The position numbers were made by a program, and so were the translations under genes. This document shows, in pieces, positions 2,989 to 48,197 of a stretch of 64,000 nucleotides of DNA (position 1 is its first letter; each line of letters begins with the position of its first letter). Location: positions 32,001 through 96,000 of IMG/VR virus record IMGVR_UViG_3300028886_001681; one strand, written 5' to 3'. The stretch is from a virus. Its lineage: Duplodnaviria; Caudoviricetes. The notes beneath the pieces are model-generated. The model saw nothing but the letters and a program-made list of their open reading frames with translations, was not told the DNA's origin and searched no databases.

Positions 2989-3006
2989 ATCATTCCTCCA
3001 ATTTTG

Positions 3007-3192
3007 CTAATATTCGCTTAACCCCAATCCAACCGCTCGCCATTTGACCGCAGTCGGCGACACTTTGAATCGTTCCGCGACCGCTTCCAAGCGTCCACAT
3101 TTCTCTTTCCATATCTGTCTGAATAACTTTTCCGGCATAAGAAAAGCGGCGGCAAAAGTATTGGCCTCTTTTTCAAGCTCTTCTTCATTCAT
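3007..3192 (-). CDS. C-terminal part of ImmA/IrrE-family metallopeptidase domain
   Basis: EKEANTFAAAFLMP...FKVS..AVKWR signature; no HExxH. Confidence 0.7.
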   Translation of the reverse strand: MNEEELEKEANTFAAAFLMPEKLFRQIWKEKCGRLEAVAERFKVSPTAVKWRAVGLGLSEY

Positions 3193-3466
3193 TCCTCAAT
3201 CTCCTTTCATCGCAGGCTTTCAAATAAATGTCCCACATCTTGTCCGCGTACTTCTCGTCGTTCTTCCATCTGAAATATCTGATTGCCGACAAGGGAATCC
3301 ATAGGGGAGACAAGACGAGATGAAAGGCGAAAGCGAACAAGTTCACGAGAAAAATCGTCGTTTCCTTAAAGCCGTCCGCGATGTTGCATAAATCCTCTCC
3401 GAAAGTTTCAGCAACCATGTTCTTGTTTCTTTTTGTGCAGTATTCTACAAATTCTTCCTTGGTCAT
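3185..3466 (-). CDS. small membrane protein
   Basis: One hydrophobic segment; overlaps neighbouring ORFs. Confidence 0.6.
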   Translation of the reverse strand: MTKEEFVEYCTKRNKNMVAETFGEDLCNIADGFKETTIFLVNLFAFAFHLVLSPLWIPLSAIRYFRWKNDEKYADKMWDIYLKACDERRLRNE

Positions 3467-4302
3467 ACCTTCGCCTCGCTATCTTTCTGTTTCGCTTGTT
3501 CAATTTTTTCTTTACTCAATTTTGTAGCATAAGCAAAATCTTCATCACTCATAGATAAATATTGCCAATCCCATTCATTCATTCCTTCCTTCACCTCCAT
3601 TCCGCAAGGGCTGTCGTTAAATGCTTTTTCGATAGGCCAGTGATATTTGTTTATCCTGTCCTTAACCTTAATATAATTTAATTTTAGTTCTTTACACCAT
3701 GCTGCTAAATGTTGCGTCTTTCCTTTATAGGTTATCATTTTATAACGAGCGTTTCCTTTTGTTTCAAACGCTTTTTCAACAGACCAATGAGAATCATTAA
3801 GTCTAGATATAACCGTGTAATATTTTAGATTTAATTCTCTGCACCAATCGGCAAGCGATTGAGTCCGCCCCTTATATGTTATAAGCCTTAGGCTATGATT
3901 TCCTTTTGTTTCAAACGCTTTGTCAACAGACCAACGCAAGGAGTTTATTCTGCATTTTATTTTATGATAATCAAGCCCAAGTTCCTCACACCATTGACTT
4001 AAAGGCTTTGTTTCGCCTTTATATTTTATTAAATGATTCCGTCTTTGGTTATTATTCTGTTGTTTTCTTGTCGCCCATCTACAATTCTCAGGACTGTAGC
4101 CTTTGTTATTGTCGATACGGTCAATGCTTAAATCATCATTATAACCGTTTGACAACGCCCATTCGTAAAATAAATTAGGTTTTTTCAACCACTCATCACA
4201 TATTGTTATCCCTCTTGCACCATAATCCTTAAAATTTTGGGCTTTAGGGTTGTAACATCTATTTTTCATTGCTTGATAAATTCTTTTTAATCTTTCATTC
4301 AT
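3463..4302 (-). CDS. HNH homing endonuclease with three repeated DNA-binding modules
   Basis: MKNRCY..YGARGI..SIDRIDNNKGYSPENCRWAT; 3x ITYKG.T..L..WC.EL repeats; AT-rich. Confidence 0.85.
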   Translation of the reverse strand: MNERLKRIYQAMKNRCYNPKAQNFKDYGARGITICDEWLKKPNLFYEWALSNGYNDDLSIDRIDNNKGYSPENCRWATRKQQNNNQRRNHLIKYKGETKPLSQWCEELGLDYHKIKCRINSLRWSVDKAFETKGNHSLRLITYKGRTQSLADWCRELNLKYYTVISRLNDSHWSVEKAFETKGNARYKMITYKGKTQHLAAWCKELKLNYIKVKDRINKYHWPIEKAFNDSPCGMEVKEGMNEWDWQYLSMSDEDFAYATKLSKEKIEQAKQKDSEAKV

Positions 4303-4894
4303 CTAAGACTCCTACGGGGCTTCCGTCCAAGTAGGTGTAGTCATCTAACAACTGCTCAAACCCAATTATGAAAGGATTAAAGTCAATGCTCACACTATCC
4401 TCGCGAAAAGAGGATACTAAAGTCTGGCGGTCAACATCCTTGCCCTTGAGCCAAATCGACGGTTCGCAGTATGGCGGACAGTCGACCTTGAATCGAGCGA
4501 TAAAGTCCGCAATTATTTCGGTGGAATCCTTATATGGACGGTAACGCTTTTCATCTTCTTCAGGCTTGATGCGATACTCAATATTCAAGTCCCAACGTGG
4601 ATTATATGCAGAACACCAGTCTCCACTTACATCGTCTTTAAATTGTATTTCTTTGCCCTCGTTGAAAGCCCTCTTGGCCTCGTAGTTTGGGTCGTAGTAT
4701 GCGAAACGATAGCGAACAAGGTCGTCGCTCTCAAAAGGCATTCCGTTATCTCTTGACCAACGAACCTTGTAAATTGACGCGCCTTTTTCCACGCGCTCAA
4801 TCAAAGAGTTTATGTTATCCGCCACAAAGACTTCCTTGCCTTCCAACTCGTCGTCCCACATGAAGCGGACGAATTTTTTGTCGAATAACTCCAT
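4295..4894 (-). CDS. hypothetical phage protein
   Basis: 199-aa ORF, GGAGG RBS, ends YTYLDGSPVG. Confidence 0.75.
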   Translation of the reverse strand: MELFDKKFVRFMWDDELEGKEVFVADNINSLIERVEKGASIYKVRWSRDNGMPFESDDLVRYRFAYYDPNYEAKRAFNEGKEIQFKDDVSGDWCSAYNPRWDLNIEYRIKPEEDEKRYRPYKDSTEIIADFIARFKVDCPPYCEPSIWLKGKDVDRQTLVSSFREDSVSIDFNPFIIGFEQLLDDYTYLDGSPVGVLDE

Positions 4895-4898
4895 AAGC

Positions 4899-5042
4899 CT
4901 ACCTCCAAATATCGGCCAAACTTTCAGTAATCAAGGCCAAGGGGAAAAGCACGGCCCCGCAAAGCAAGCCGAATAAAACCGCGAAGGGAAGGAGAATGAG
5001 CGAAAGGAGCGTCATCCCCAAATTCTTCAAAATCATCGTCAT
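4899..5042 (-). CDS. small membrane protein (not in ORF track)
   Basis: MTMILKNLG...ADIWR*, 47 aa, hydrophobic; AGGAG RBS; fills the gap between ORFs. Confidence 0.6.
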   Translation of the reverse strand: MTMILKNLGMTLLSLILLPFAVLFGLLCGAVLFPLALITESLADIWR

Positions 5043-5281
5043 TTACGCTCCTCTCCTTCCTCGTAGACCGTCAATGTTCCGTCAATCGGATTGTCGACCA
5101 CCATATTCACCTTTCTGTCGCTCTTGGTGCGATGGAGGAAAGTTCCGCCTTGAGTCTGAACCTCAAATTTCTTGTCCTTGACTAAATGCGAGCACGCGAG
5201 GTCGCCCCAATGTTTTTCCTTCAATTTCTCGTTCTCGTAGATTAAAACCTTCATCCTCCCAAACTCCTTTATCTGCAACAA
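5039..5281 (-). CDS. hypothetical protein
   Basis: ORF in array; true start probably the internal MKVLI. Confidence 0.55.
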   Translation of the reverse strand: MLQIKEFGRMKVLIYENEKLKEKHWGDLACSHLVKDKKFEVQTQGGTFLHRTKSDRKVNMVVDNPIDGTLTVYEEGEERK

Positions 5282-5715
5282 TCCCTAATTATTCTGCTTG
5301 AATACAAAGGGTCGTCCTTCCTCAACTCCTCCCATTCGACCAAGAATCCGTCCTTGTTCTCGTAGACTCCGTTGAAGTCGTAGGGAATTCCGTCTATCTC
5401 GCAGAGGAAATGCCCTTGAATCTCGTCGTATAGAATCGTTCCGTTGAACGCGTCCTTTAGAATCAAGGCGAAGAAATAGCAGTTTCCGCTAGTCCACTTG
5501 CAGTCGGTCGGAAACCTTCTCTTGATGAAATTCAAGACTTTTTTCTCGGTGTCCTCTCCGCCGTCTTTTTCCTCGAACAAGTCCGAACCCAAGGCGACCT
5601 TTCTCCAATAGCGGAACACTCCCATAGCCACTCCGAACCCTCCGTAAATGAAGGCGAAGGGGAAGGCCAAAAGGCTCGCCAAGAATGTCAAGGACAAGAA
5701 CAAAATTCGTTTCAT
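5269..5715 (-). CDS. hypothetical protein, N-terminal TM; GNCY..A/H motif (possible papain-like fold)
   Basis: First gene after sigma70-like promoter; GNCYFFA and GHF motifs. Confidence 0.6.
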   Translation of the reverse strand: MKRILFLSLTFLASLLAFPFAFIYGGFGVAMGVFRYWRKVALGSDLFEEKDGGEDTEKKVLNFIKRRFPTDCKWTSGNCYFFALILKDAFNGTILYDEIQGHFLCEIDGIPYDFNGVYENKDGFLVEWEELRKDDPLYSSRIIRDCCR

Positions 5716-5783
5716 TTCTTTTTCTCCATATGGTTATGATATACCGAAACTCGCCCTTTTGTCAAGGAAATTCCGATTTTTTT

Positions 5784-6137
5784 TTATGAAATTGCGAGGC
5801 TTTTCCTCGATTTTACGATGAAATCCACCCTTTCCAACACATCCAAGCCGATTATTTCGTCCAATTGAGTTAGAATCTCCTCGTCAGAGAGCGAGCACCA
5901 ATGGGAATCCATCGTCCTCAACATTCCGCCGAAGGAATACAACTTGGGATGCTCAAGAAACCTCTCGTCGTTCAACATTGGGAAGAACTCGCGGTATGTG
6001 GCGGAAAGCATTCGTTCAAGCGCCTTTTGTTGGGCTTCCTTCTTGGAGTCGGCCTCGACAATCAACTCTCTGTAAGTTTCCTTGCCGTACTTTCCGTGGC
6101 TTCCCTTGGCCACGACTCTGACTACGAACTCCTTCAT
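5784..6137 (-). CDS. hypothetical protein
   Basis: GGAGG RBS; own promoter at 6163-6191. Confidence 0.7.
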   Translation of the reverse strand: MKEFVVRVVAKGSHGKYGKETYRELIVEADSKKEAQQKALERMLSATYREFFPMLNDERFLEHPKLYSFGGMLRTMDSHWCSLSDEEILTQLDEIIGLDVLERVDFIVKSRKSLAIS

Positions 6138-7692: not shown

Positions 7693-8148
7693 TTATTCAT
7701 TCTCCTTTCTAGGCGGTGGAACTTCCACCGAACCTTCCAACCAAGCATAAATAGGATAATTTTTGTTTTCTCCGTTCCACACGCCGTCGCCTAAATACAT
7801 GAACTCATCGCATTCATAATCACCGTCACCGCAATCATAAGCGCAAATATAATTCAATGGCAGAATGGATTTGCCGTCTTCGCTTTCTTTTGGATTTGGC
7901 GGTAATTTATCCGTTACATAACACCATGTTTTAGCGTTTATATGTCCGTTTGACTCTCGATTTATATCGCCATAATCTTTTCCAAGATAATAGCCGTGAT
8001 TTTCTCCCATCTCCCATGAATATTCCGCGATTGAATAATAAGGCTCTAAAGGGCATTTATCGGAACGCCCAAATTCCTTTCCATAGTTGTCGTCCCAAAA
8101 CTGCTCAAAGACTTCATATTTTACATTTTCATTATATTCGTCGCTCAT
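7693..8148 (-). CDS. DUF551-like hypothetical protein
   Basis: W..V.DKLP...IYAW...PPP. Confidence 0.6.
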   Translation of the reverse strand: MSDEYNENVKYEVFEQFWDDNYGKEFGRSDKCPLEPYYSIAEYSWEMGENHGYYLGKDYGDINRESNGHINAKTWCYVTDKLPPNPKESEDGKSILPLNYICAYDCGDGDYECDEFMYLGDGVWNGENKNYPIYAWLEGSVEVPPPRKENE

Positions 8149-8178
8149 TTTTTATGTCCTCCTCAACTTTTCCCAAGT

Positions 8179-8853
8179 TCACTGCCTCATCATAGCCAAC
8201 GCTTTTATAAAATGCTTGAATCCAAATCCGCCACGCTTTTTATAAAAATTCGTAATGACCAATCGTTTCTCCAAATCTTTATAAAACTCTACATCTAGAT
8301 AATCATCTTCCAAGATGACATATTTTCCTTCAAAATGATTTCTTTCAATCCATTCCATTATTTGAGTTCCACGTGCATACTGCAGAATAAAATCTCGGTT
8401 CTTTATATTTTCAAATCCTTGGAATGTTGGTCTATTGCACCAATCAGTTATTTTATCTTCGTTCATTTCATAATTATTTTCAAGACTTAATTTTCCTTCT
8501 CTAGTGACTGAAATAACATTTATTCCATTCTTACGGAATAGAGAATCAGTCTTCATCATATCATGGCCTTTAATGTCTTTTCTTACAGAACCGTCTTCAT
8601 TCCACCCATATTTCCAAGTGGAAGATAAAACTACTTTAGATTTTGTCAGTCCGCATAACAAACTTAACCAAAACAAGTTTCTTTTGCAAATCTGGCTCAC
8701 CATATCATAGCCATTTTTCTTCACATTTCTTTGGTAATATTTTGATTTATAGAAATAATGATAGTTGAGAACACCGTCAATGTCTAGAAAAATTATTTTA
8801 TCTGTCATCTGTGTCTGTCTCAATATATTTAAAATTATCGTTATCAAATTCAA
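8179..8853 (-). CDS. HAD-superfamily phosphatase (HAD_SAK-like)
   Basis: IIFLDIDGVLN, VVLSSTW, RG.QI..W, YVILEDD. Confidence 0.8.
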   Translation of the reverse strand: MNLITIILNILRQTQMTDKIIFLDIDGVLNYHYFYKSKYYQRNVKKNGYDMVSQICKRNLFWLSLLCGLTKSKVVLSSTWKYGWNEDGSVRKDIKGHDMMKTDSLFRKNGINVISVTREGKLSLENNYEMNEDKITDWCNRPTFQGFENIKNRDFILQYARGTQIMEWIERNHFEGKYVILEDDYLDVEFYKDLEKRLVITNFYKKRGGFGFKHFIKALAMMRQ

Positions 8854-8877
8854 CTTCTACATTCATTTCGGATGTAT

Positions 8878-9069
8878 CTATTTTGCAACAAGAGTAAATG
8901 ATTCAAAATCATCTATAAAATTTTTCTTATCATAAAGATTCTTAAAATTTACTCTAATTTCAACCTCATGAGAATCTTCCATATCTCTGACTTCTGTAAT
9001 TAAAATTTCTTTATCCAATAATTCAGATAAAAGTTTTCTTTGTTCAAATTCAAAAGAATCCATTACCAT
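8878..9069 (-). CDS. hypothetical protein
   Basis: GAGG RBS. Confidence 0.55.
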   Translation of the reverse strand: MVMDSFEFEQRKLLSELLDKEILITEVRDMEDSHEVEIRVNFKNLYDKKNFIDDFESFTLVAK

Positions 9070-9490
9070 AATTTTAATCCTCTTCCCATTCCTTATTGAA
9101 CTTACTCATCGCGCGACTTAAAGTTTTTTATAAATCTTCAAGGAATTATGCTTTATTTTAATTTTCTAAAAAATATCGCTCCTTTCATTTTTAGAAAACC
9201 TTTCGCGTTAGAATCCAATTCTTCAAGAGTAAAAGAATTTTCATTCAATCCGACAAATCGATTTCCAAATCTCGAAAACTTGTATTTGGCTTTTCCGAGA
9301 TTTACCAATTCAATGACCTCTTTTAATTTCATAGTCATATTCATGCCTCCAAATCGTTTTTATAGTCTGTCTGACAGACAGACCGTTATATAGTTTCTTT
9401 TTATCTCCTACGAAATAAATTATTGCATTTCAACGATTAGTTTGTCAATATTTATGCGCCATATTCATTAAATGAAATGTCGTATTTTAA

Positions 9491-11191
9491 TTAATAATCC
9501 ATGAAATGTTCCTTGAAATAATCCTCCCTTTCATAAGCCTTGGTCTTAAAGTATTTGTAGGCAAGTTTTATTTTCGGCAACATATCAAGATATTTTTCCC
9601 TTTCTCGTCTGTCATTCAAATAATACCTCAAGTCTTTTTCCGTGGTCTGACTGATGTTGAAGAATTCCGTTTTGTCCAACCAAATCGCGGTTCTTTTCCT
9701 CTTGGTGTCGTCATGCCATCTTTCCTCAAAATAAAGGATTTTATATCCCCAATCTTCGTCATAATCCTTTATTTCGTAAACTTTGCTTCTATTCGGAATT
9801 CCCACCCATCTTCTTCTCCAATCCATATGATGCTCATAGATGAAATCCGAATCGTCGGTCGCTCTGCCGTAATAATTTTTAGAACCCCACAAGTCGGTGA
9901 CGATGATTCTGTCGCCTATTTTGCTTCTGTCTCTGTTTTCTTGAAGATAACTTCTCCAACTAGGCATCGTGTTGTCGCCAATCAAATCTTTTCTTTCCTT
10001 ATCGCGAACCAACACGATTTTTTCCTTGTCAAAAAGTCCGCATATGAGATTCGTCTTGAATTGGCAGTCCGTTCCGAGAATGTCGGTTCTGTCAAGAATG
10101 CCTTGAATCGCTATGAGAATGTATTTCCAAGGGAGAATGTTTTCCATGAAAGTTTCTTGGTCGAATTCTTCATCGCCGTTCCATTTCTTTCCCGCTTGAA
10201 TGCTTTGTTCTTCTGTGGGAAACATCGTGTCGTCTCTTGACTCGACATCGGAGAAAATTCTATAGAGCCTTTCTCCGTTTCTTATGAGAAAATAACAGTT
10301 GGCGTTATATCCGTTGCACACCATGTTTTCCCATCTGTCGCCGTAGTCTTTTCCCCGCCTTTTGATTCGCCACATCACAATTCCGCGCTCCGACGGAATG
10401 AACATCTTGTAATTCTTGACAATCCATTCGTCAAAAAGATTGATGTTCTTGTAATCAAAGTCGTCCGTTTCCACATAAGTGGTTTCCGTAATTTGCTCAA
10501 GATTCACGATTCCATATTCTTCGTCCATGAATCTAACGGCTTGGTACAAATGAATGGGTTCGTCGCTCGTCTTTCCTTCGCCGATAAGTTCGACGACCTC
10601 TTCTTTCGCCCCAAGATATGTTTCGTACGCGCAAATCACGCGATATTTTCCTTTAAGCCATTTTTCCATTTCGGCAACTTGCAACTTCAATTCTTGCCTC
10701 TGTTTTTCAAGTTCAAGCATTTTCCTTTCGATTTCATTTCTGCAATCATTGAAATCTTTCACCGTTTTGATTTTGCCTTCCTTGAATTCTTGCGGTAGGT
10801 TTTCGGAATAGGCTTTGACCGCGTCGTCTTTCAACAACGCTATTTCTTGGGAATCCGCTTTCTGCCCTTTGGACGACAGTTTCTTTTCCACATCGTCAAA
10901 ATTAAAGTTTTCAAATTCCGACACTTTGATTGTTTTCACGAGTTTATAATCTTCTTCCGTTTCAACATAGATGTTGATTTCGGCTTTATCATAACATCCG
11001 TCTTTAATGGCATATTTATTTGAATCATGATTGTATTCAGAAAGGCTATAGTCCGAGAGATATTTATAGATGTCGTCTTCCGTGTAAACAAATTTATATA
11101 CGGCGAATTCAAAGGAGTCCGCTTCAATCCAAACGCCCTCAAGTCTCGGATATCCGTTCGTTTCTTCTTTTCTGCCGAAAAAATATTTCAT
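9491..11191 (-). CDS. large hypothetical protein with coiled coil
   Basis: 566-aa ORF, GGGAG RBS. Confidence 0.8.
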   Translation of the reverse strand: MKYFFGRKEETNGYPRLEGVWIEADSFEFAVYKFVYTEDDIYKYLSDYSLSEYNHDSNKYAIKDGCYDKAEINIYVETEEDYKLVKTIKVSEFENFNFDDVEKKLSSKGQKADSQEIALLKDDAVKAYSENLPQEFKEGKIKTVKDFNDCRNEIERKMLELEKQRQELKLQVAEMEKWLKGKYRVICAYETYLGAKEEVVELIGEGKTSDEPIHLYQAVRFMDEEYGIVNLEQITETTYVETDDFDYKNINLFDEWIVKNYKMFIPSERGIVMWRIKRRGKDYGDRWENMVCNGYNANCYFLIRNGERLYRIFSDVESRDDTMFPTEEQSIQAGKKWNGDEEFDQETFMENILPWKYILIAIQGILDRTDILGTDCQFKTNLICGLFDKEKIVLVRDKERKDLIGDNTMPSWRSYLQENRDRSKIGDRIIVTDLWGSKNYYGRATDDSDFIYEHHMDWRRRWVGIPNRSKVYEIKDYDEDWGYKILYFEERWHDDTKRKRTAIWLDKTEFFNISQTTEKDLRYYLNDRREREKYLDMLPKIKLAYKYFKTKAYEREDYFKEHFMDY

Positions 11192-27970: not shown

Positions 27971-28653
27971 GCCTTTCTTCTCCTTTTCTTGCTCGTCGTT
28001 CCGTTCAAACTCTTGTCGATTTCCTTTTGAGCCATCGACGAGTACTTGCTCGTGATTTTCTGAATCGACTCCATTTTCTCAATTTCGTCCTTTTGGTAGT
28101 TATTCAACCGCTCCATGGTCTCCTCATTGTCGAAGTAGAAGTCCTTGCCTCCCAAGCACTCCTCAATTTCCTTGTCGGTCATGAAGTTCTTGTAGAGTTC
28201 CTTGAAATGGCGAACCGCCACCTTCTTGTCGAAGTCGTACTTGGCGACCAACTCATTCCACTTGCCGTATCCGCAGTCAGTCCAACAATGAACCATGCAA
28301 TAGGCGTGCTTTGAAATTTCCCAAGCGTTGGCTCCCAACATAATCATCGTCGCTGCGGAACAACAAGCCCCTTCAATTGAAACCACTACATCCGCGTTCG
28401 ACGACCTCAACTCGTCGTATATGTTCCAAGCGGTGTCAGCCAACCCTCCGTAGCAGTTGATGTGGATTGTGACCAAGTCTCCGCTTCGGCAGTTTCCGAC
28501 CGCTCTCAAGAAATCGATGTAGTTCTCGATTTCGGCGATTTCTCCGCTCAAGTAAAAGTCGATTTCCTTGCGCTCGCCAGTGTCCTTGATTTGAAGGGGG
28601 TTGTTCTGAAATTCCTCCGCTCCGTCAATTACTGTTGAAATTCTTTTCTTCAC
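27967..28653 (-). CDS. clpP: ClpP-family protease
   Basis: IHINCYGG, GACCSAATMI (catalytic Ser), CMVH. Confidence 0.85.
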   Translation of the reverse strand: MKKRISTVIDGAEEFQNNPLQIKDTGERKEIDFYLSGEIAEIENYIDFLRAVGNCRSGDLVTIHINCYGGLADTAWNIYDELRSSNADVVVSIEGACCSAATMIMLGANAWEISKHAYCMVHCWTDCGYGKWNELVAKYDFDKKVAVRHFKELYKNFMTDKEIEECLGGKDFYFDNEETMERLNNYQKDEIEKMESIQKITSKYSSMAQKEIDKSLNGTTSKKRRRKA

Positions 28654-29366
28654 TTTAAGTCGTCCTCCTCTCTCGATTTTTTATAATCCTCTATTATTTT
28701 ATCCTTCAATCCTTCCAAACCCTTGGGCATTCGTCCGCAACACTTGATTTCCTTGCAGTAACCGATGTCCTCGCACTTGGGGACGAAGTAGTTGTCGCAA
28801 ATCCACTTCCATTCCTCGGAGTAGGCGGAAAGTTTATCCTTGATTTCCTTGGACAATTCCCTAATCTCATTGTAAGCCCTAGAGCAAAGCCTTTCGTTCA
28901 TGAAGTGAATCAATGCTCGCAAGTTTATCTTCCACACGATTTTCGTGTCCATTCCCAACGGAAGGATGTTGGCTATGTCCTCTTTCGGCATTCCCAATTC
29001 CGCCAATTTTCCGTATGAGTCGGAAATCTCGTCCATCACCGTCTCGTAAATTTCTAGTTGCTTGGAGGATACTCCTTTGGGAGTATAGTAGTTGAAGTTC
29101 TCATAGTCAACATACCTCGTGGACGATTGTAAATAAGTGGTTCCCACTATATGACGACCCAATTCTCTGATACATCTTGCGGATTTACAATCTATAATAA
29201 ATACCACATCCACATATTCCATTATTCGCCCGTGTCCGCTATTGATGCATGACTTGGCTCGTTTTATATTTTTATCAACATCGTCAATATTAGAATTCCA
29301 ACAAACCCCAGCGATTTTTCCAATATAATTCAATGGATTTTTTTGGCAAGACTCAATCAATATCAT
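28650..29366 (-). CDS. thyX: flavin-dependent thymidylate synthase
   Basis: SGH...EY, RH-x7-S-x-R-Y (RHIVGTTYLQSSTRY), NLR.L..F...R...RA..EIR. Confidence 0.92.
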   Translation of the reverse strand: MILIESCQKNPLNYIGKIAGVCWNSNIDDVDKNIKRAKSCINSGHGRIMEYVDVVFIIDCKSARCIRELGRHIVGTTYLQSSTRYVDYENFNYYTPKGVSSKQLEIYETVMDEISDSYGKLAELGMPKEDIANILPLGMDTKIVWKINLRALIHFMNERLCSRAYNEIRELSKEIKDKLSAYSEEWKWICDNYFVPKCEDIGYCKEIKCCGRMPKGLEGLKDKIIEDYKKSREEDDLK

Positions 29367-30586
29367 TTATCTCTCCTTTCAGATACATAATCATTCAAAT
29401 CATAAGCGTTTTGTTCAAAATGTTCAAACGCATCAAATAAATCATCTTTCTTTAAAATTTTGACATTATTGACAATCATACAGTTTTGTTTTTCAATCAA
29501 CAATTCATTTTTATTATAAGGATTGATTAATTCACCTTTTTCGTTAAAAAAATGGTCGCCTTTTATTTCAACCAATTCTCCATTTATCAAAAAATCAGGT
29601 TCGTATGAGTGTACTTTTCCATCTATTTCATAAGTTATGTTGGTTTTGGGATGAAAAATAAAATCAATTTTATTATCTTTCAGATACATATAATAAATTA
29701 ATTCCCACGAACTATCAAATTTATTATTATCATATTCGAATTTATATTGATTCCATTGCTTTCCGTATTTTTCGATACATGTTTTTCTTATTTTATCTCT
29801 AACCCATTCTAATTTATTAATATTATCTACTCCATATTTCGCTAATGAAGATTCCGCTTTATGTTGTTTTACAACATCGCTTGAATTTGGACTTTCGACT
29901 CCGTATTTCAATAGGCTAGTTTGTTTGGTTTTTTCTTTATAATCTTTCGTTCCTAAATATTCTTCACTTCCATATTTAATTAGATTTGTTTGTTTTTTCT
30001 TTTTTTTAAATTCCTCAACTTGGCTCACATTTTCAATATTGTTGCCATAGCGACTTTTTAATGTATTTTTAGTGTGCTCTTTCATAATTTCAGATTGAGT
30101 TGTATATTCAACTCCGTATTTTTTAAGATTTGTTTCTTTGGTTTTTTTCATTTTTAATTCATTGAAATTTTCCAAAGAACCATATTTTTCAATAATGGTT
30201 TTATTTCTTTTTTCGGCGGAAATTTTATTAAAATTTTCCAAAGAGCCAAAACGCTCGATTATTTTATTTTTGCGATTTTTTATATTTTTTTCAGTATTCA
30301 TTGTACACGAAACCCCATATTTTGTTAAATTTGTTTCTTTTGCTTTATCGGCATTTACATAATTTTCATTTCCATATTTTAATAATTTAGTATGTTTTAC
30401 TGAACAAACCATACATCGAGAAATATTATTTCTATTTTTTATATTTTTTGCAAATTTTGAAAATGGTTTTCCACAAACGCAACAAAGACCTTCAAACATT
30501 ATGTTTGATGATTTTTTAAACAAAATATCATCGTTTACAATATCATTTATATTCGATGAAGTTATTGTGATAATATTATATTCCAT
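29363..30586 (-). CDS. putative homing endonuclease (KETNL.KYG repeats, C-terminal PD-(D/E)xK-like nuclease)
   Basis: Many T...KYGV repeats; DSSWE...YEPDF...VEIKG; very AT-rich. Confidence 0.75.
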   Translation of the reverse strand: MEYNIITITSSNINDIVNDDILFKKSSNIMFEGLCCVCGKPFSKFAKNIKNRNNISRCMVCSVKHTKLLKYGNENYVNADKAKETNLTKYGVSCTMNTEKNIKNRKNKIIERFGSLENFNKISAEKRNKTIIEKYGSLENFNELKMKKTKETNLKKYGVEYTTQSEIMKEHTKNTLKSRYGNNIENVSQVEEFKKKKKQTNLIKYGSEEYLGTKDYKEKTKQTSLLKYGVESPNSSDVVKQHKAESSLAKYGVDNINKLEWVRDKIRKTCIEKYGKQWNQYKFEYDNNKFDSSWELIYYMYLKDNKIDFIFHPKTNITYEIDGKVHSYEPDFLINGELVEIKGDHFFNEKGELINPYNKNELLIEKQNCMIVNNVKILKKDDLFDAFEHFEQNAYDLNDYVSERRDK

Positions 30587-31691: not shown

Positions 31692-32406
31692 TGGGGTATT
31701 TCCTCCAATAATCGGAAGGCACATTGTTAGCCCAAACATTGAATCTTTCGACCAAAGACTTGGAATAAATCGTCGTAGGCTCGTGGTTCGTATCCTTGCA
31801 CAATGAATATGCCACTTTCGGATTTGAGTAGTTTGTCATCGCGGTATTCAAAGCGATGTTTCTGTTTTCCGAATTGGATTTGGCCAATTTCTTAATGTCC
31901 TTGAATTTCTGTTCCGCCCCCTTCAACTTGTCGTTCAATTCTTTTCTTTGAGCGGATATTTCGCTCAATTTCTCCTTGAGAAGTTTTCCGTCAAGGCAAG
32001 ATTTGTAGTCGGATTCTAGTCCGTCAAGTTTCGCCAATTTTTTCTCTATTGAATTTTTGGACTTGTCGAACGAAGCCTTCGCTTTCTTGGTTTTGTTTTT
32101 CGTGGATTCGTCAATTTTTTCGTTTTGCTCTTTGGTTAGCGTTTTCTTATGGTTGAGTTTAATCGTGACCACTTTAGCGCAATCCATGTATTGATTCTTG
32201 AACTGTTTGTCGGTCAGATTGCTCCAATCTCTCTTTTGAATTTCTTCCGCAAGCAAAGATGTGCCGAAATAAGTTCTGAATGTTTTTGCTGTTGCGAACT
32301 CATATTTATTTTTTATTGTTTCCAATAACGAATCGTCAATTTCAAATTTATCGACCGATAGCAAGTTCTTCAAGCGTTTTGGTAATTTTGTCATAATTAT
32401 AAGCAT
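31684..32406 (-). CDS. DNA topoisomerase IB, C-terminal part (linker and catalytic Tyr)
   Basis: AKTFRTY, KLNH, coiled-coil linker, ALNTAMTNYSNPK; AAGGAGGG RBS 5 nt before ATG at 32406. Confidence 0.88.
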   Translation of the reverse strand: MLIIMTKLPKRLKNLLSVDKFEIDDSLLETIKNKYEFATAKTFRTYFGTSLLAEEIQKRDWSNLTDKQFKNQYMDCAKVVTIKLNHKKTLTKEQNEKIDESTKNKTKKAKASFDKSKNSIEKKLAKLDGLESDYKSCLDGKLLKEKLSEISAQRKELNDKLKGAEQKFKDIKKLAKSNSENRNIALNTAMTNYSNPKVAYSLCKDTNHEPTTIYSKSLVERFNVWANNVPSDYWRKYPNV

Positions 32407-33292
32407 ATTTGCCCTCCTTAATATTATTATATACTGTTTGTGTGTATTCGTCAAAATAATTTTTATAAACTTTTATAAAATCATTCCAAGCAATATCAAT
32501 GTTAAATTTATTATATAAAAATTGTTGTAATGCTTTATTTGATTTTATTTTTAATTTTACTTTTTCATTTTTAGCGATGTTTTTTTCACCCTTCATGGAA
32601 TCACTTCGTATTTTTTTACTTTCTTCAGTGATTCCATTTTTGCGTTTTTCAGAATAAATTTTTTTATCTCCATCGGATAAAGAATCCCAAAACATTTTAT
32701 TTTTTTCAGATTTATTTTTCTTTTCTTTTTCATTCCAATGTTTCCCTTTCATTGGATTGATATAATTTTTTTGTTTTGCTAATTTTTTATGAGTTTTGCT
32801 TGATTTTTCTTTCAATTCATTTGTCCACATTTCTTTAACTTTTTGTTTATGAAAATCTTTAACTTTTTCAAAGCCATCTCTTTGATGTTGTCTTAATGTA
32901 TCGAATTCTTCTTTTGATAAAGATTTATACCATGATTTTGTAGATTGAGATTTTTTTAATTTTTGTTCATCAGTTATATATAAATTATAATTAGATTCCC
33001 CACCTTCGGTCATGTTGTATCCAAAATTTAAATCATTGGAATGAAAAAGTTTAATTAATCTTTTTTCCCAATAATTTAAGTCATAAGTTTCAATTAATAT
33101 TTCAAAAGAAAAATTTTTAACGCCATATTTTCTTATTGCTTTATGAATATAACAATCATCTTTTGAATTTATATGAGAAATCCATCTATTGTGAATATCA
33201 ATTGATTGACCGATATAAACTTTATGATTTATGAGATTTTCAATTTTATAAATTCCACTAATATGATTATTATATATTTTATGTCTACTCAT
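32348..33292 (-). CDS. GIY-YIG homing endonuclease inserted in the TopIB gene
   Basis: SGIYKI.N.IN.KVYIGQS..I..RW..H, GYN...GG; AT-rich; overlaps both TopIB parts. Confidence 0.92.
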   Translation of the reverse strand: MSRHKIYNNHISGIYKIENLINHKVYIGQSIDIHNRWISHINSKDDCYIHKAIRKYGVKNFSFEILIETYDLNYWEKRLIKLFHSNDLNFGYNMTEGGESNYNLYITDEQKLKKSQSTKSWYKSLSKEEFDTLRQHQRDGFEKVKDFHKQKVKEMWTNELKEKSSKTHKKLAKQKNYINPMKGKHWNEKEKKNKSEKNKMFWDSLSDGDKKIYSEKRKNGITEESKKIRSDSMKGEKNIAKNEKVKLKIKSNKALQQFLYNKFNIDIAWNDFIKVYKNYFDEYTQTVYNNIKEGKYAYNYDKITKTLEELAIGR

Positions 33293-43239: not shown

Positions 43240-44046
43240 ATGAAGGTAAGAAAAAGAGACGGAAGATTTGCGAATTTCAACGAATCAAAAATTGCGAACG
43301 CCATTAAATTGGCGTCTGAAAATTCAAAAAGCGACAACAAAATAACAGACGAACAAATAAAAAACACCCTTACTTTTGTAAAGTTATCTATTGAAGGTAA
43401 AGATGAGGTTAGTGTCGATGACATTCATGACTTGGTTGAAAAATCTTTGAAAAAAGAAAACAAGGATGTCGCCAAGTCATACATCGAATACAGAAAAAAC
43501 CGAGAACTTGACAGATTTAGAAATCTTGAAATTACAAAAAGAATTTTTGAAAAATTGAACGCGACGAATGTCATGAATCAAAACGCAAACCTCGACGAAT
43601 TTTCGTTCGGAGGAAGAAAGGGCGAAGCGGATTCCGCATTGTTGAAGGAGTTAGCCTTGAACTATTTGATTTCTCCCAAATTCGCCAAAAACCACAATAA
43701 CAATAGAATTTATATACACGACCTAGACTCTTATTTTGTCGGAATGCATAACTGTTTATCGCTTCCCATTGACGATTTGTTAAGAAACGGAATGAAAACT
43801 AGACAAGTTTTCATTAGACCCGCCAACAGTTTGTCGACCGCAATGCAACTTGTCGCAGTGGCGATTCAATTACAATCTTTGCAACAGTTCGGAGGTGTGG
43901 CGGTAACTCACATCGATTGGACTATGGTTCCTTACATTCGAAAATCGTTTTTCAAGCATTATAATGATGGCCTTAAATACGCGGAAGGCAAATCGGATAA
44001 AGAAATTGAAAAAATCGACAATGGGATTTTAGAAAAAAGTAAGTGA
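43240..44046 (+). CDS. nrdD: anaerobic ribonucleotide reductase, N-terminal part (NrdD-a)
   Basis: ATP-cone (VRKRDG), NQNANLDE, IYIHDLD, HNCL, QFGGV. Confidence 0.93.
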   Translation: MKVRKRDGRFANFNESKIANAIKLASENSKSDNKITDEQIKNTLTFVKLSIEGKDEVSVDDIHDLVEKSLKKENKDVAKSYIEYRKNRELDRFRNLEITKRIFEKLNATNVMNQNANLDEFSFGGRKGEADSALLKELALNYLISPKFAKNHNNNRIYIHDLDSYFVGMHNCLSLPIDDLLRNGMKTRQVFIRPANSLSTAMQLVAVAIQLQSLQQFGGVAVTHIDWTMVPYIRKSFFKHYNDGLKYAEGKSDKEIEKIDNGILEKSK

Positions 44047-44074
44047 TTTCCCAATCGGATTAACTATTTGTATT

Positions 44075-45409
44075 ATGAAAGAAACATTGATAGAAATATT
44101 TAAGAAAAAAGGCATTCTCAATAAAAATAACGGACGAAAATTCTGTTATAAAAATTATTGGGACGACGAATGCGAATCGTTGTGGGGAAAATATTCTTCT
44201 AATTATAGAAGTAATGATGAAGCGTGGTATTGCTTGTCTAAAAATGTAGAACCTCCGAAATGTCCATTGTGTGATAAGTTATGTAGATTTGTGGGCGGAA
44301 AGCGAGGTTATAAAATAACTTGCGAAACTTGTGACCCAAATAAAGTTCCGTCTAAATTAAAACATTTTTCCAAGACTATTTCTAAAAGAACAGAAGAAGA
44401 AAAAAGGAAAATCTTTGAAAAAAGAAAACAAACTAATTTAGAATTATACGGAGATGAAAATTTTACATTGTATGGCTCTAAATCTTTCAAAGAAAACATG
44501 TTGAATAAATATGGCAATGAAAATTACTCTAATCACGAAAAAGCAAAAGAAACTAGTATCGAACGATATGGTGTGGATTGCAATTTTAAAAGGGAAGGAT
44601 TTCAACAATATTCTGCGAATAAAAAACGAGAACTATACGGCAACGCCTCTAATTATGAAAAAACCATGAAAACCAACATGAAGAGGTATGGTGTTCCCCA
44701 CATAGGACAATGTAGAGAAATAATAAATAAAAATAATCTCGAAAAACAAGAAAAATATGATAAATTCGAAATTGAAAACGATTGCACATCGAGGAGTAAA
44801 TTAAAAAAATTATACGGTGTAGGATGGTGGTCTCTCGGTATAGAATATCTTGAATACATGGGGCATTATTTTGTACCTAATGAATTTTTAAAAGATATAA
44901 TAGAATATTCTAGCGAAGGTACGCACACCAACAGTTATATTTCTAAACGAGAAGTTGAGCTTAGAAATTACATTAAAGAAATTTATGATGGTGAAATTCT
45001 CAACAATGTGACCAATGTCGTAAAAAATAACAATCATAGATATTTTGAATTAGATTTGTATTTGCCTCGATTAAAAATTGCATTTGATTTTGACGGAATG
45101 TATTGGCATTCCATAAAATTTAAAGATAAATATTATCATCAAAGAAAAAGTGTATGTTGTTTGGAGCAAGGGGTTAGATTGGCTCATATACAAGAAGATG
45201 AATGGGTGAATAATCGTGAGGTTTTGTGCGATAAAATAAGACAATTAATTTTTGAAAACAAAACATTTAATGATGGTTGTTTCCCACCTTCGTTGAACGA
45301 TTATAATTTTTCTGAACCTAGAAAGATTATGATTGATAAATTTGGTAAAAAAACACTTGACGAAAGCCAGTGTAATTTAATATATTATGATACAGGAGTT
45401 ATTTTATGA
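44075..45409 (+). CDS. homing endonuclease (Hef/Vsr-like) splitting nrdD
   Basis: Zn finger, T...YG repeats, ELD.Y.P.LKIAF.FDG.YWHS...EDEW; TAACTATTT 5 nt before ATG. Confidence 0.82.
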   Translation: MKETLIEIFKKKGILNKNNGRKFCYKNYWDDECESLWGKYSSNYRSNDEAWYCLSKNVEPPKCPLCDKLCRFVGGKRGYKITCETCDPNKVPSKLKHFSKTISKRTEEEKRKIFEKRKQTNLELYGDENFTLYGSKSFKENMLNKYGNENYSNHEKAKETSIERYGVDCNFKREGFQQYSANKKRELYGNASNYEKTMKTNMKRYGVPHIGQCREIINKNNLEKQEKYDKFEIENDCTSRSKLKKLYGVGWWSLGIEYLEYMGHYFVPNEFLKDIIEYSSEGTHTNSYISKREVELRNYIKEIYDGEILNNVTNVVKNNNHRYFELDLYLPRLKIAFDFDGMYWHSIKFKDKYYHQRKSVCCLEQGVRLAHIQEDEWVNNREVLCDKIRQLIFENKTFNDGCFPPSLNDYNFSEPRKIMIDKFGKKTLDESQCNLIYYDTGVIL

Positions 45410-45558
45410 GAGATGTGATTGATGTGTCCATTGATGACGAAAAGTACAAAAAGCATAAAAAAGCGTATCAATACGCCATGGATATGCTACAAAAAGAAGT
45501 TCACCAATCGATAGAAGGATTGTTGCACAATTTAAATTCATTGCAAAGCAGGTCGGGT
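45406..45558 (+). CDS. nrdD: NrdD-b exon 1 (not in ORF track)
   Basis: CAGGAG RBS; ATGA overlap with the endonuclease stop; MRDVID...AYQYAMDM...HNLNSLQSRSG. Confidence 0.88.
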
Positions 45559-45819
45559 AGACTTTAGATTGCCCCATTCATCAGTAATGATGAATTGATA
45601 ATTCGGTAAAATCGGTGAAGACTAAATCATTAAGATATGTTGATACCGAGATAAGCATTCGAATTGCGAAAGGTCGAATGACATTGTAGAGCATAGAAGG
45701 TGAATAAATATAATCCTTCCACGAGTACCGAACATCCAAATATTTGGATGAAAATGTATGCCGAACTTATGAGAAATCATAAGAAGTATGGATAAAAAGC
45801 CATACGATAACAAATATTG
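45559..45819 (+). mobile_element. group I intron (261 nt, no ORF)
   Basis: Removal restores QSRSG|NQLPF; 5' exon ends in U, intron ends in G; P1 GGGU/GCCC; P7-like GCAUA/UAUGC. Confidence 0.88.
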
Positions 45820-47664
45820 AATCAATTGCCGTTTTCGTCCATAAATTACGGAACTTGCACATTGAAAGAAGGTCGTTTACTAACCAAAGAAATTTTGGAA
45901 TGCACAATCGATGGTGTTGGAAATCACGCGACTTCCATTTTCCCATGCCAGATTTTTCAATTGATGGACGGTGTAAATGTGAAAGAAAGCGACCCTAATT
46001 ATGATTTATTCAGATTAGCAATCGAATGTACATCAAAACGCTTATATCCTAATTATGTAAACTGTGATTGGAGCAACGACCAAGGATATAATAAAGATGA
46101 CCCTAGAACTTATCCTAGTACAATGGGTGCGGTTCGTGGAGACGAAATTGTTTCTATTAAAATCAACGATGTTGAATTTAATGATATTTCGATTAAAAAA
46201 GCAATAGAAATGATTAATGCATATACTTCTAATGTCGAATGGATTAACAATGAATCTGATAAAATTGGATATACAAAACATAAACGAGTAAAAGATTGTC
46301 AGATTAAGTGTCAATCAAAATGGGTTAGAATTCTCAACATCGAATTCAACGACAAATCATCCCCCTTAAAATTATACGAAGTCACTTTTGATAAAAACGA
46401 AACCGAGCAAACTCTCCATATCACGGAAGACCATCCTTTACACACTAGCAGAGGAAGAGTCGAGGCTAGGGATTTGAAGGTCGGAGATGTGATTTATGAC
46501 TCCATTAGCGGTTACGGTTACAAAATCGTTTCCGTAAAAGAAACTAACGAAAAATGCGACACTTACGACTTCACTACAGAAACAGACATGTTTGATTTGA
46601 GCGGAATCGTCTCTCATAACTGTAGGACTTATAGCAGTAGCGACATAAACGCGGAGTCTGCGGAATTGTCGCATATTAAGGACGGACGAGGAAACATAAC
46701 ACCTGCGACTATAGTTTTGCCAACAATAGCCATGGAATCAAAAAAGAAAATGAAAGACGATACTGATGAAAAGGTTTTGATTGAACTTTTCATGAAAAAT
46801 CTCGAAGACGCGATAATCGACTGTAAAGACGAATTGATTGAAAGATTCAATTACATTTGCTCGCAAAATCCAAAATCCGCTTCCTTCATGTATGAAAACG
46901 GAACATTCTACGGATATAAAGAAAGCGAGGGAATTCGTTCAGCGTTGAAACACGGCAGTTTGGCGGTGGGACAAATAGGCTTGGCGGAAACTTTGCAAAT
47001 TTTAATTGGAACAGACCAATGCACGAAAAAAGGAATGGAGTTGGCAAAGAGAATTGAGGAATTATTCAAGCGAAAGTGTTCTGAGTTTAAGAACGAATAT
47101 AAATTGAATTTTGGAGTTTATTACACACCTGCGGAAGGATTATCAAAGACTTCATTCGATAAATTTGTGAAAAAATACGGTCTTATTGAAAATGTCACTG
47201 CATATAAAGATGAAAACGGAAAATTACAACCTAGAGGATATTTCACGAATTCGATTCATGTTCCTGTTTGGAAGGAAATTTCTCCGTTTGAAAAAATAGA
47301 CATAGAATCCCAATTAACGAATTATTCTTCGGCAGGTTGCATTACTTATGTTGAAATCGGAGACAACGCTTCCAACAACTTGAAAGCCCTCGAAGAACTC
47401 GTATTGTACGCCAAGTCGAAAGATGTTCCATATTTCGCATTGAATCTTCCGTTGTCGCATTGCAAAAAATGCGGTTGCGACGAAAACATTGGTTTTGAGG
47501 AAAGTTGTCCTAAATGTGGAGCGGATAAAGATGAAATTGAACATCTCGCTCGCGTGACAGGTTATCTCTCCACGGACTACAAGCATTTTAATTTAGGAAA
47601 GCAACACGAAGTCAAAGACCGATATGTTCATGTGAATAAATTGTCGTCATGGAAACAAAAATGA
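45820..47664 (+). CDS. nrdD: NrdD-b exon 2 (contains intein)
   Basis: PFSSINYG, IFP.QIF, STMG|CRT, GRGN, TPAE, YFTNS, CxxC, RVTGYL glycyl-radical motif. Confidence 0.93.
   Translation, partial: NQLPFSSINYGTCTLKEGRLLTKEILECTIDGVGNHATSIFPCQIFQLMDGVNVKESDPNYDLFRLAIECTSKRLYPNYVNCDWSNDQGYNKDDPRTYPSTMGAVRGDEIVSIKINDVEFNDISIKKAIEMINAYTSNVEWINNESDKIGYTKHKRVKDCQIKCQSKWVRILNIEFNDKSSPLKLYEVTFDKNETEQTLHITEDHPLHTSRGRVEARDLKVGDVIYDSISGYGYKIVSVKETNEKCDTYDFTTETDMFDLSGIVSHNCRTYSSSDINAESAELSHIKDGRGNITPATIVLPTIAMESKKKMKDDTDEKVLIELFMKNLEDAIIDCKDELIERFNYICSQNPKSASFMYENGTFYGYKESEGIRSALKHGSLAVGQIGLAETLQILIGTDQCTKKGMELAKRIEELFKRKCSEFKNEYKLNFGVYYTPAEGLSKTSFDKFVKKYGLIENVTAYKDENGKLQPRGYFTNSIHVPVWKEISPFEKIDIESQLTNYSSAGCITYVEIGDNASNNLKALEELVLYAKSKDVPYFALNLPLSHCKKCGCDENIGFEESCPKCGADKDEIEHLARVTGYLSTDYKHFNLGKQHEVKDRYVHVNKLSSWKQK
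46129..46620 (+). mobile_element. mini-intein (164 aa, Ala1) at the NrdD catalytic Cys
   Basis: Interrupts STMG|CRT; block B TEDH, block F TYD, terminal SHN, +1 Cys. Confidence 0.88.
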
Positions 47665-48164
47665 GATACGCGAATATCATAGAAAACGACATAGTTGACT
47701 CCATAAGTGGAATCAATGTGTCGTTTTGGTGTCAAGGTTGCAATTTCCATTGTCCTCATTGTCATAATCCGCAAACATGGAATTTGTGTGGCGGTCAAGA
47801 ACTCCCATCAAATTACAAAGAAATCGTTTTGGAATTGCTTCATAAAAACGGAATCAATCGAGGACTGTCTATTTTAGGCGGAGAACCTTTGATTGAGCAA
47901 AATCGTCAACTTGTTTCTGATTTGGTGAATTATGTCAAAGATAAATCTCCTACCACAATCATATATCTGTGGAGCGGATACACTTTGGAAGAGTTGAGAA
48001 AAATGAACGATGCTAGCGTGAACTTCATTCTGTCAACAATCGATTACCTAATCGACGGTCGCTACGAGGACGGCAAGAAGGACTTGTCGCTAAAGTTGAG
48101 AGGAAGTTCCAACCAAAATGTCTATCGACGAGTGAACGGCAAATTGAAGAAAATCGAAATTTAA
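47649..48164 (+). CDS. nrdG: anaerobic RNR activating enzyme (radical SAM)
   Basis: C-x3-C-x2-C (CNFHCPHC), GGEP, IDG.Y, RGSSNQ. Confidence 0.93.
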   Translation: METKMRYANIIENDIVDSISGINVSFWCQGCNFHCPHCHNPQTWNLCGGQELPSNYKEIVLELLHKNGINRGLSILGGEPLIEQNRQLVSDLVNYVKDKSPTTIIYLWSGYTLEELRKMNDASVNFILSTIDYLIDGRYEDGKKDLSLKLRGSSNQNVYRRVNGKLKKIEI

Positions 48165-48167
48165 ATG

Positions 48168-48197
48168 AAAAAAACGCTCGGAAATTCGAGCGTTTTT
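48168..48197. terminator. bidirectional terminator
   Basis: AAAAACGCTCG/CGAGCGTTTTT between convergent genes. Confidence 0.8.

Follow-up and report, generated by a model that had tools for sequence, protein, structure and literature searches.

The nrdD gene of the phage in IMG/VR record IMGVR_UViG_3300028886_001681, which encodes a class III ribonucleotide reductase (RNR), has very probably been invaded by three independent selfish elements and most likely still works, through biochemical steps that are predicted from the sequence. We examined 64,000 nt of this 160-kb record (bases 32001-96000; hereafter the window), taking coordinates from a six-frame list of open reading frames (ORFs) together with the raw sequence. 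The gene is split into nrdD-a and nrdD-b by the gene for a free-standing homing endonuclease, and nrdD-b is further interrupted by a group I intron and a mini-intein (Table 1). Each of these kinds of interruption is already known, but to find the three combined in a single gene, and the nuclease and intron together again in related phages, is unusual.

A class III nrdD in two pieces

The gene has both active-site cysteines, the glycyl-radical motif, the Zn cysteine cluster and the adjacent nrdG expected of class III. NrdD-a matched the Pfam ATP-cone (1e-19) and NRDD (1e-28) families and NrdD structures in PDB (7e-27), and the C-extein of NrdD-b matched NRDD (3e-92) and Gly_radical (1e-10). Alignment to T4 NrdD placed the equivalent of C79, an HNC motif, in NrdD-a, and those of C290 (MG/C; here and below a slash marks an insertion point), the Zn cysteines and G580 (RVTGY) in NrdD-b, in agreement with an earlier note on this DNA that had assigned HNC to the first chain and MG/CR and RVTGY to the second. 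The start of nrdG overlaps the end of nrdD by 16 nt, and since the lone terminator-like hairpin on the + strand lies 3′ of nrdG, the region from nrdD-a to nrdG looks like one transcription unit.

The earlier note had also read a stop in nrdD-a at 44046, a nuclease start 28 nt further on, and a resumption of nrdD at ATG 45406 from CAGGAG within the last codons of the nuclease, with an ATGA overlap. All of this is seen in the ORF list and the sequence, the ATG (45406-45408) overlapping the nuclease stop TGA (45407-45409). The 28-nt spacer (44047-44074) contains no Shine-Dalgarno (SD)-like purine run before the endonuclease ATG and no significant fold (z -1.06), and the restart region is likewise unstructured. 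An intron-family profile (nhmmer) found no match around the nuclease ORF, and no residues are missing between NrdD-a and NrdD-b relative to intact NrdDs.

Searching for related loci with a single nuclease sequence found none; with an alignment of nucleases as the query we identified four other phages, L056 and L057 from IMG/VR and L135 and L136 from metagenomes, that carry an orthologous nuclease at the same nrdD position. Compared with the window, their NrdDs are ~50-68% identical over aligned segments and their nucleases 38-46%. The NrdD-a chains of all five split alleles end after GLKY. In the window, L056, L057 and L135 there follows an acidic tail of the type EG[KL][ST][DE]E[ED]I[EQ]K, a pattern that the acidic tail of L136 fits loosely, and an SD and ATG precede the downstream half of nrdD in four of the five (window, L057, L135 and L136). 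Conserved translation restarts are what a two-chain gene predicts. Together with a nuclease region that has neither ribozyme-like structure nor intron homology, they make two separate chains, with the nuclease region kept in the RNA, appear the best reading of the split, as the earlier note had proposed. The arrangement is that of genes in pieces: a stop, a free-standing endonuclease gene, an independent restart and no splicing element at the break.

Two other interpretations of the break were rejected. A split intein does not fit ends of ~20 residues that have no intein blocks and no HN followed by Cys, Ser or Thr. The other took the tail of NrdD-a to be a diverged copy of the beginning of exon 1; the two share a match to Pfam profile positions 124-136 and an alignment to one T4 segment, but this signal is too weak. 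A perfect 17-bp hairpin at 45298-45335, ~70 nt upstream of the nrdD-b start and followed by no U-tract, may be a processing or translational-control element.

The endonuclease

The endonuclease matched PHROG 3339 'homing endonuclease' (2e-36) and DUF7487 (6e-10), and is made up of an N-terminal Cys cluster, repeated KYG modules (DUF7487) and a C-terminal Vsr-like EDxHD nuclease domain. Its family is very large (13,870 cluster representatives), with P0083 (86%) and P0084 (51%) the closest homologues. Searching PDB with the sequence returned nothing useful. An AlphaFold2 model was compared with known folds using Foldseek. The model, built on 23 homologues with a predicted local distance difference test score (pLDDT) of 80, matched the catalytic domain of I-Bth0305I (3r3p) with a target-normalised template-modelling (TM) score of 0.75-0.80, a root-mean-square deviation of 2.6-2.9 Å and 21-22% identity, and matched Vsr more weakly (target-normalised TM ~0.53). 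The catalytic motif ELD...FDFDGMYWHS...QEDEW fits the EDxHD family. E325, D327, H345 and W377 are invariant across the 23 homologues, and ELD...[ED]F[ND]G.YWHS...E[DN].W varies little if at all; at the first acidic position of FDFDG, most homologues have Glu and this protein Asp. The modelled fold and the aligned catalytic residues thus support an EDxHD (Vsr-like) homing endonuclease of the I-Bth0305I type, and the Vsr-like label given in the earlier note stands.

A group I intron without an ORF

The sequence supports reading 45559-45819 as a group I intron that has no ORF and is predicted to self-splice. We placed its helices ourselves on our own alignment of 18 sequences, from P1 to P9.1 with a P3/P7 pseudoknot (Table 1). 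P1 is formed by GGGUAG (45555-60) and UUGCCC (45569-74), in which U45558, the last exon base, wobble-pairs with G45571 at the 5′ splice site. Just 5′ of the guide sequence, GAUU (45566-69) pairs with AAUC of exon 2 as P10. The minimum free energy (MFE) of the insert has a z of -4.3. Across the alignment 80.5% of cells are paired, compared with 63.7% after shuffling (0/500 shuffles were as good) and 35-44% in slid controls. Pairing reaches 99% in P3, where 6/6 pairs show compensatory changes, 100% in P7 and in P7.1, 96% in P4 and 89% in P8. The MFE fold had first assigned P3 to UUCGGU and an invariant GCCGAA; this was rejected as only ACCGAA at 45727-32 covaries. The helix between P7 and P3′ is an arrangement that we take to be associated with subgroup IA. 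Of the features sought, a U·G splice site, a terminal G and a covariation-supported P3-P7 core were found, and a match to Rfam RF00028 was not (see Discussion).

A megablast search against phages returned nothing. By blastn the insert matched 123 phage records at 66-76% identity, among them Streptococcus thermophilus and Staphylococcus phages, the terminase large subunit gene (terL) of Lactobacillus phage JCL1032 and a crAss-like helicase gene. A motif scan of IMG/VR added 34 further members of the family, of which this phage genome has one copy only. An insertion at the same site as the T4 nrdD intron was considered and rejected, the two sites being ~33 nt apart.

A class-2-like intein at the catalytic cysteine

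From exon 2 onward the gene is a 615-codon frame to 47664 with a 164-codon insert inside. The insert begins with Ala1, contains block B (TEDHPL) and block F (TYDF), ends in SHN and is followed at +1 by the catalytic Cys equivalent to T4 C290. It is hence an in-frame insert, absent from orthologues, with conserved blocks and a C-terminal HN then Cys. Its best PDB sequence match was the NrdJ-1 intein (E 0.0035). Among the 50 listed fold matches of its model, 48 were inteins and 2 intein-like BIL domains, with KlbA a distant match at rank 43; the TM against the TFIIB mini-intein was 0.61-0.64. These matches, with the exact absence of the insert in relatives, uphold the 164-aa intein of the earlier note.

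A search restricted to the intein residues recovered 82 proteins, all of them NrdDs. In the 72 for which both junctions could be located, the first residue was Ala in 70 and Ser in 1, the remaining one being a doubtful match, and the Ala1 family has the N-terminus AV[RAK]G[DNE]E. The junction [HN]N/C[RK] was present in 81/82, nearly always as SHN/CR. Members are ~164 aa, or 267-286 aa with a GIY-YIG domain, and all of them keep T..H in block B and the Asp in block F. We applied the criteria that separate class 2 from class 3 inteins (PMC2807308), in which the WCT triplet of class 3 is Trp B:12, Cys F:4 and Thr G:5. A class 2 intein is expected to lack both this triplet and an N-terminal Cys, Ser or Thr. 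The NrdD family starts with Ala in 70/72 and has Leu at B:12, the invariant Asp at F:4 and Ser at G:5 in place of WCT; it is class-2-like. The class-3 reading was rejected, as B:12 is not Trp and conservation is lacking at the Cys three residues ahead of the block F Asp.

Other insertions were observed in the nrdD of related phages. L136 carries a large insert at MG/C (2988-4472, a 495-codon span), the last ~70 residues of which match the window intein; it has stops when read in the upstream frame and may be an intein that is interrupted or carries a separate ORF. L006-L014 have stop-rich inserts of 246-820 nt exactly at MG/C and, immediately ahead of RVTGY, an intron that belongs to the window's family. 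In L011-L014 (e.g. L012, 6505-7407) a 301-aa in-frame intein lies exactly at the other catalytic cysteine (MQN/C...GN/C). Lastly, the nrdD of L056 has a third interruption, a stop-containing ~380-nt stretch at 5616-5995, just before MG/C.

Empty sites in relatives

The closest relative is L004 (86% amino acid identity in NrdD-a), whose nrdD is uninterrupted at the positions of the window's nuclease gene and intron. DNA homology between the two ends at 43978 and restarts at 45491, so that a foreign tract of 1512 nt (43979-45490) stands where the L004-like gene has 111 nt. The 261 nt of the intron are exactly absent from L004, position 6925 of which corresponds to 45559/45820; with the homology and covariation above, this bears out the group I intron of the earlier note. 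In L005-L014 and Thomasclavelia phage TR-TP1, nrdD is likewise continuous at the nuclease and intron sites, and the 164 intein codons are exactly absent from L005, L009, L057 and L135.

We compared the window with L004 by the proportions of nonsynonymous (pN) and synonymous (pS) differences. pS was 0.6-0.8 (saturated), and pN was 0.03-0.10 across NrdD-a, the intein and the two extein parts; the N-extein part of exon 2 is 94% identical in amino acids, with a pN of 0.028. The intein itself (pN 0.10, pS 0.69) is under purifying selection, which is not expected of a dead intein at a catalytic cysteine. In exon 1, pN rose to 0.28, exceeding the neighbouring pieces three- to tenfold, and the first ~85 nt of exon 1 and the tail of NrdD-a resemble L056 and L136, not L004. 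The high pN and these flanks indicate that a cassette was imported into an L004-like gene.

Further downstream, after ...AEFKKE, the nrdD of L004 is itself split by a second nuclease, a distant relation within the same family (ORF 8339-9199; cassette region 8204-9582), with an SD and an ATGA-type restart at 9193/9196. Here the nuclease and an ORF-less intron are 42 nt apart. The upstream and downstream nrdD pieces share a reading frame at both splits (window, 43240/45406; L004, 6001/9193), which could be coincidence (1 in 9) or reflect the way in which the cassette inserts.

Table 1. Features of the interrupted nrdD locus, helices placed in the intron and introns of the split alleles.
Feature	Position	Strand	Description
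nrdD-a	43240-44046	+	268 aa; ATP-cone and NRDD N-terminus including HNC (ORF, Pfam, PDB, T4 alignment)
Acidic tail of nrdD-a	43979-44046	+	Last ~21 codons; present in split alleles only
Spacer, nrdD-a stop to endonuclease ATG	44047-44074	+	28 nt
Free-standing homing endonuclease gene	44075-45409	+	444 aa
Restart signals of nrdD-b in endonuclease 3′ end	45393-45409	+	CAGGAG 45393-45398, 7-nt gap, ATG 45406-45408
nrdD-b exon 1	45406-45558	+	51 codons, ending ...NLNSLQSRSG; aligns to uninterrupted NrdDs
ORF-less group I intron	45559-45819	+	261 nt; terminal G at 45819
Intron P3	45602-07/45727-32	+	18-sequence alignment
Intron P4	45612-17/45644-49	+	18-sequence alignment
Intron P6	45656-62/45674-80	+	18-sequence alignment
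Intron P7	45691-95/45757-61	+	18-sequence alignment
Intron P7.1	45696-700/45715-19	+	18-sequence alignment
Intron P8	45733-38/45745-50	+	18-sequence alignment; followed by P9 and P9.1
nrdD-b exon 2, N-extein part	45820-46128	+	NQLPFSSINYG ... PSTMG
Mini-intein	46129-46620	+	164 aa; AVRGDE...VSHN, then CRT
nrdD-b C-extein	46621-47664	+	CRT..., Zn Cys cluster, RVTGY glycyl-radical motif
nrdG activase (radical SAM)	47649-48164	+	Pfam Fer4_12 9e-36, Radical_SAM
Terminator-like hairpin	48170-48197	+	Sole one on + strand between 42900 and 48400
Intron of window allele	45559-45819		ORF-less; offset 0
Intron of L056 allele	4964-5313		ORF-less; 3′ half of the window's family; offset -11 nt (CAGU/CA)
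Intron of L057 allele	4996-5320		ORF-less; second family, classic R/S elements; offset -16 nt (CU/U)
Intron of L135 allele	2567-2893		ORF-less; family and site of L057; offset -16 nt
L136 allele			No intron; nuclease intact, motif uninterrupted

Introns beside the nuclease in the split alleles

An ORF-less intron lies within the same 16-nt interval in 4/5 nuclease-bearing alleles and 0/12 nuclease-less alleles. The introns beside the nuclease occupy three positions and come from two sequence families (Table 1). Collaborative or trans homing would be expected to give such co-occurrence (PMC3984707, PMC2790892). The intron of L056 looks mosaic, nt 97-174 matching the family of L057 and L135 and the 3′ 136 nt that of the window. 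L056, a 410-kb phage, also has two small ORFs (3002-3412 region) between nrdD-a and the endonuclease.

Discussion

We propose that a single transcript would run from nrdD-a through nrdG, and that the group I intron would remove itself from it, joining 45558 to 45820. NrdD-a would be translated as 268 aa up to the stop at 44046. The endonuclease would probably be made in small amount, given a start without an obvious ribosome-binding site, and separate initiation at ATG 45406 would yield the NrdD-b precursor. The Ala1 mini-intein would then excise itself by a class-2-type route, in which Cys+1 attacks the Gly-Ala junction directly and Asn164 subsequently cyclises, leaving STMG-CRT and freeing the catalytic cysteine. 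After both splicing steps the predicted NrdD-b is 501 aa. NrdD-a and NrdD-b would associate non-covalently, probably aided by the acidic tail of NrdD-a, and NrdG would install the glycyl radical in the assembled enzyme. The endonuclease would be the engine of mobility and, lying ~150 nt upstream of the intron, would co-mobilise it; the intron may also shield the phage's own nrdD from cleavage.

Several results weigh against this account. There was no group I match to Rfam RF00028, whether a 3-kb piece (E<=10), the locus or the whole window was searched. In control searches the T4 nrdD intron scored 105 bits and the annotated JCL1032 terL intron was missed, so the silence of Rfam on the window intron is uninformative and reflects a gap in the coverage of the model. 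The intein fell just below the curated cut-offs of the Pfam HINT-type families (27.1 vs 27.7 bits), its structural model has a mean pLDDT of only 60, and the assignment of class-2-like chemistry comes from signatures in its sequence. The stretch at 45190-45420, where the endonuclease ORF ends, is unusually structured (z -3.2), which this account does not explain. As L004 is unsplit, much of the low ratio of nonsynonymous to synonymous substitution rates (dN/dS) may predate the split. That five diverged split alleles have all kept their pieces intact argues more strongly for a live gene than pN/pS does.

That gene function has been retained is nevertheless most likely, as suggested by the low pN, the intact nrdG and the five diverged split alleles with intact pieces. 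Three interruptions in one gene could also mean that nrdD is a decaying graveyard of mobile elements from which no active reductase is made, and degenerating, intein-propagating RNR genes have been proposed for Campylobacter phages (PMC3653736). We regard such decay as improbable here, given ~770 extein codons without a frameshift or stop, the retention of all catalytic residues and the Zn site, a pN well below pS in every piece, an intact nrdG overlapping nrdD, and the same split layout with intact pieces in five lineages diverged by 47-60%. Less probable still is that the endonuclease region belongs to a large ORF-bearing intron and is spliced out, making NrdD one chain. Just 28 unstructured nt precede the endonuclease ORF, nhmmer found no intron-family match in that region, no residues are lost between the chains relative to intact NrdDs, and the tail is kept as protein, and the SD and ATG restarts are kept, in diverged split alleles. 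These outweigh the shared reading frame of NrdD-a and NrdD-b (1359 nt apart), the structured stretch at 45190-45420 and the HNH ORF carried in a stop-rich nrdD insert by relatives such as TR-TP1, and we retain the reading of two chains.

The relationship between the nuclease and the intron is more finely balanced. A partnership between them in nrdD is at best an even bet and perhaps somewhat less, and it stands against the view, for which we see an even chance, that the two are unrelated neighbours, the nuclease cutting near its own insertion point and drawing no benefit from the intron. The latter concerns the partnership only. It is favoured by L136, which has an intact orthologous nuclease and no intron at the motif, and by the 68 nt upstream of the intron (45491-45558), which are L004-like (82%), so that the right border of the foreign tract precedes the intron; both observations weigh against a strict partnership. 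Moreover, nrdD is a hot spot in general: L006-L014 carry introns at MG/C and before RVTGY. Mere proximity is harder to reconcile with an intron in 4/5 nuclease-bearing and 0/12 nuclease-less alleles, and with a second pair of nuclease and ORF-less intron at another nrdD site in L004. Should the partnership be real, the nuclease would recognise DNA coding for the conserved NLN(S/T)LQSRSGNQLPF motif and would cut within the NLNSLQSRSGNQLPF-coding DNA of intron-less alleles, the intron-bearing allele being resistant. A group I intron within the ~16-nt interval would be kept as both protector of nrdD and homing passenger. This would explain the three insertion points, two intron families, one mosaic intron and the second pair in L004, and the alleles would form a natural series of intermediates toward mobile introns. 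The joint reading, that the nuclease and ORF-less intron are a functional pair and that the Ala1 inteins are the first class-2 group outside archaeal KlbA, is tentative and we think it rather doubtful; if true, the Ala1 family would be a large class-2 group of phages and bacteria.

The split resembles that of Aeromonas phage Aeh1, in which nrdA-a/mobE/nrdA-b (Friedrich et al. 2007; review PMC2988022) encode a split enzyme that works and depends on its tails (Crona et al. 2011, PMC3045599). In both, a free-standing homing endonuclease splits an RNR catalytic subunit, with no splicing element at the split and with terminal tails. However, Aeh1 has a class Ia nrdA and an HNH nuclease, whereas the window has a class III nrdD and an EDxHD nuclease, with an intron and intein too. 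The EDxHD family, to which I-Bth0305I belongs (Taylor et al. 2011, PMC3239194), includes free-standing members in phage DNA-metabolism genes, known as fractured genes, that share the fold and catalytic motif. Most of these are repaired by split inteins, whereas the ends in the window are ~20 residues long and have no intein blocks. A Vsr-like endonuclease does split an intein-less SbcD-like gene, whose fragments have 25 and 9 additional terminal residues (Dassa et al. 2009, PMC2677866). nrdD is not among the reported hosts of EDxHD fractured genes.

Collaborative homing (Bonocora and Shub 2009; Zeng et al. 2009, as reviewed in PMC3984707) and the trans-homing of the T4 nrdB intron by mobE (PMC2790892) offer a parallel for the putative pair. 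In such systems the gene of a free-standing endonuclease likewise adjoins a group I intron, ORF-less or with a defunct ORF, within a phage gene that is conserved. In the window, however, the nuclease gene lies inside its target gene and splits it, and the L136 allele has no intron. An intron and an intein occur in one RNR gene in SPbeta bnrdE and Brochothrix phage A9, as cited in PMC3653736; SPbeta bnrdE differs in being class Ib and without an endonuclease split. The NrdD inteins share Ala1, Cys+1, block B T..H, the block F Asp and the lack of a WCT triplet with the class 2 (KlbA-type) inteins of Southworth et al. 2000, as these are described in PMC2807308. KlbA inteins are archaeal and few, whereas the NrdD family is found in phages and bacteria, at the site of the thiyl-radical cysteine, some members having a GIY-YIG domain.

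The JCL1032 terL intron and its relatives in Streptococcus thermophilus and Staphylococcus phages belong to the window's intron family, with ~70% identity across the core. JCL1032 differs in host gene and guide sequence, and its intron is known from the joined coding sequence of the record. The T4 nrdD (sunY) intron is also a group I intron in a phage nrdD, in the same conserved segment, but lies ~33 nt upstream (AYEY/EVNTL), matches RF00028 and has its own GIY-YIG ORF. It carries I-TevII.

In the literature, the text of which was covered incompletely, we found no description of all three kinds of interruption in one gene, of an EDxHD split of nrdD conserved across lineages, of variable-position introns beside such a split, or of an NrdD intein, including the Ala1 family. 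If the proposed working is correct, three repair routes (RNA splicing, protein splicing and non-covalent reassembly) would converge on one gene of an essential pathway, and the window nrdD would be a compact natural test bed for how much invasion a working gene tolerates. The Ala1 NrdD inteins are a sizeable and previously uncatalogued set in which the +1 nucleophile would be the enzyme's own radical cysteine, and could matter both for the mechanism of splicing and as a source of intein tools.

Other homing endonuclease genes in the phage

Three other regions of the phage genome match the endonuclease. A gene at 29363-30586 of the window (- strand) encodes a 407-aa protein with the same KYG modules and a different C-terminal nuclease-like domain, and adjoins a thyX-like gene (28650-29366). 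There are two more EDxHD paralogues of 540 and 519 aa, at 121121-122743 and 125469-127028 of the genome (G000), which correspond to 3621-5243 (+) and 7969-9528 (-) of L055. Each has an extra conserved C-terminal domain and looks free-standing, and together they flank a 517-aa structural-protein-like ORF (L055, 5340-6893). A GIY-YIG homing endonuclease gene is also present in the window at 32348-33292 (- strand).

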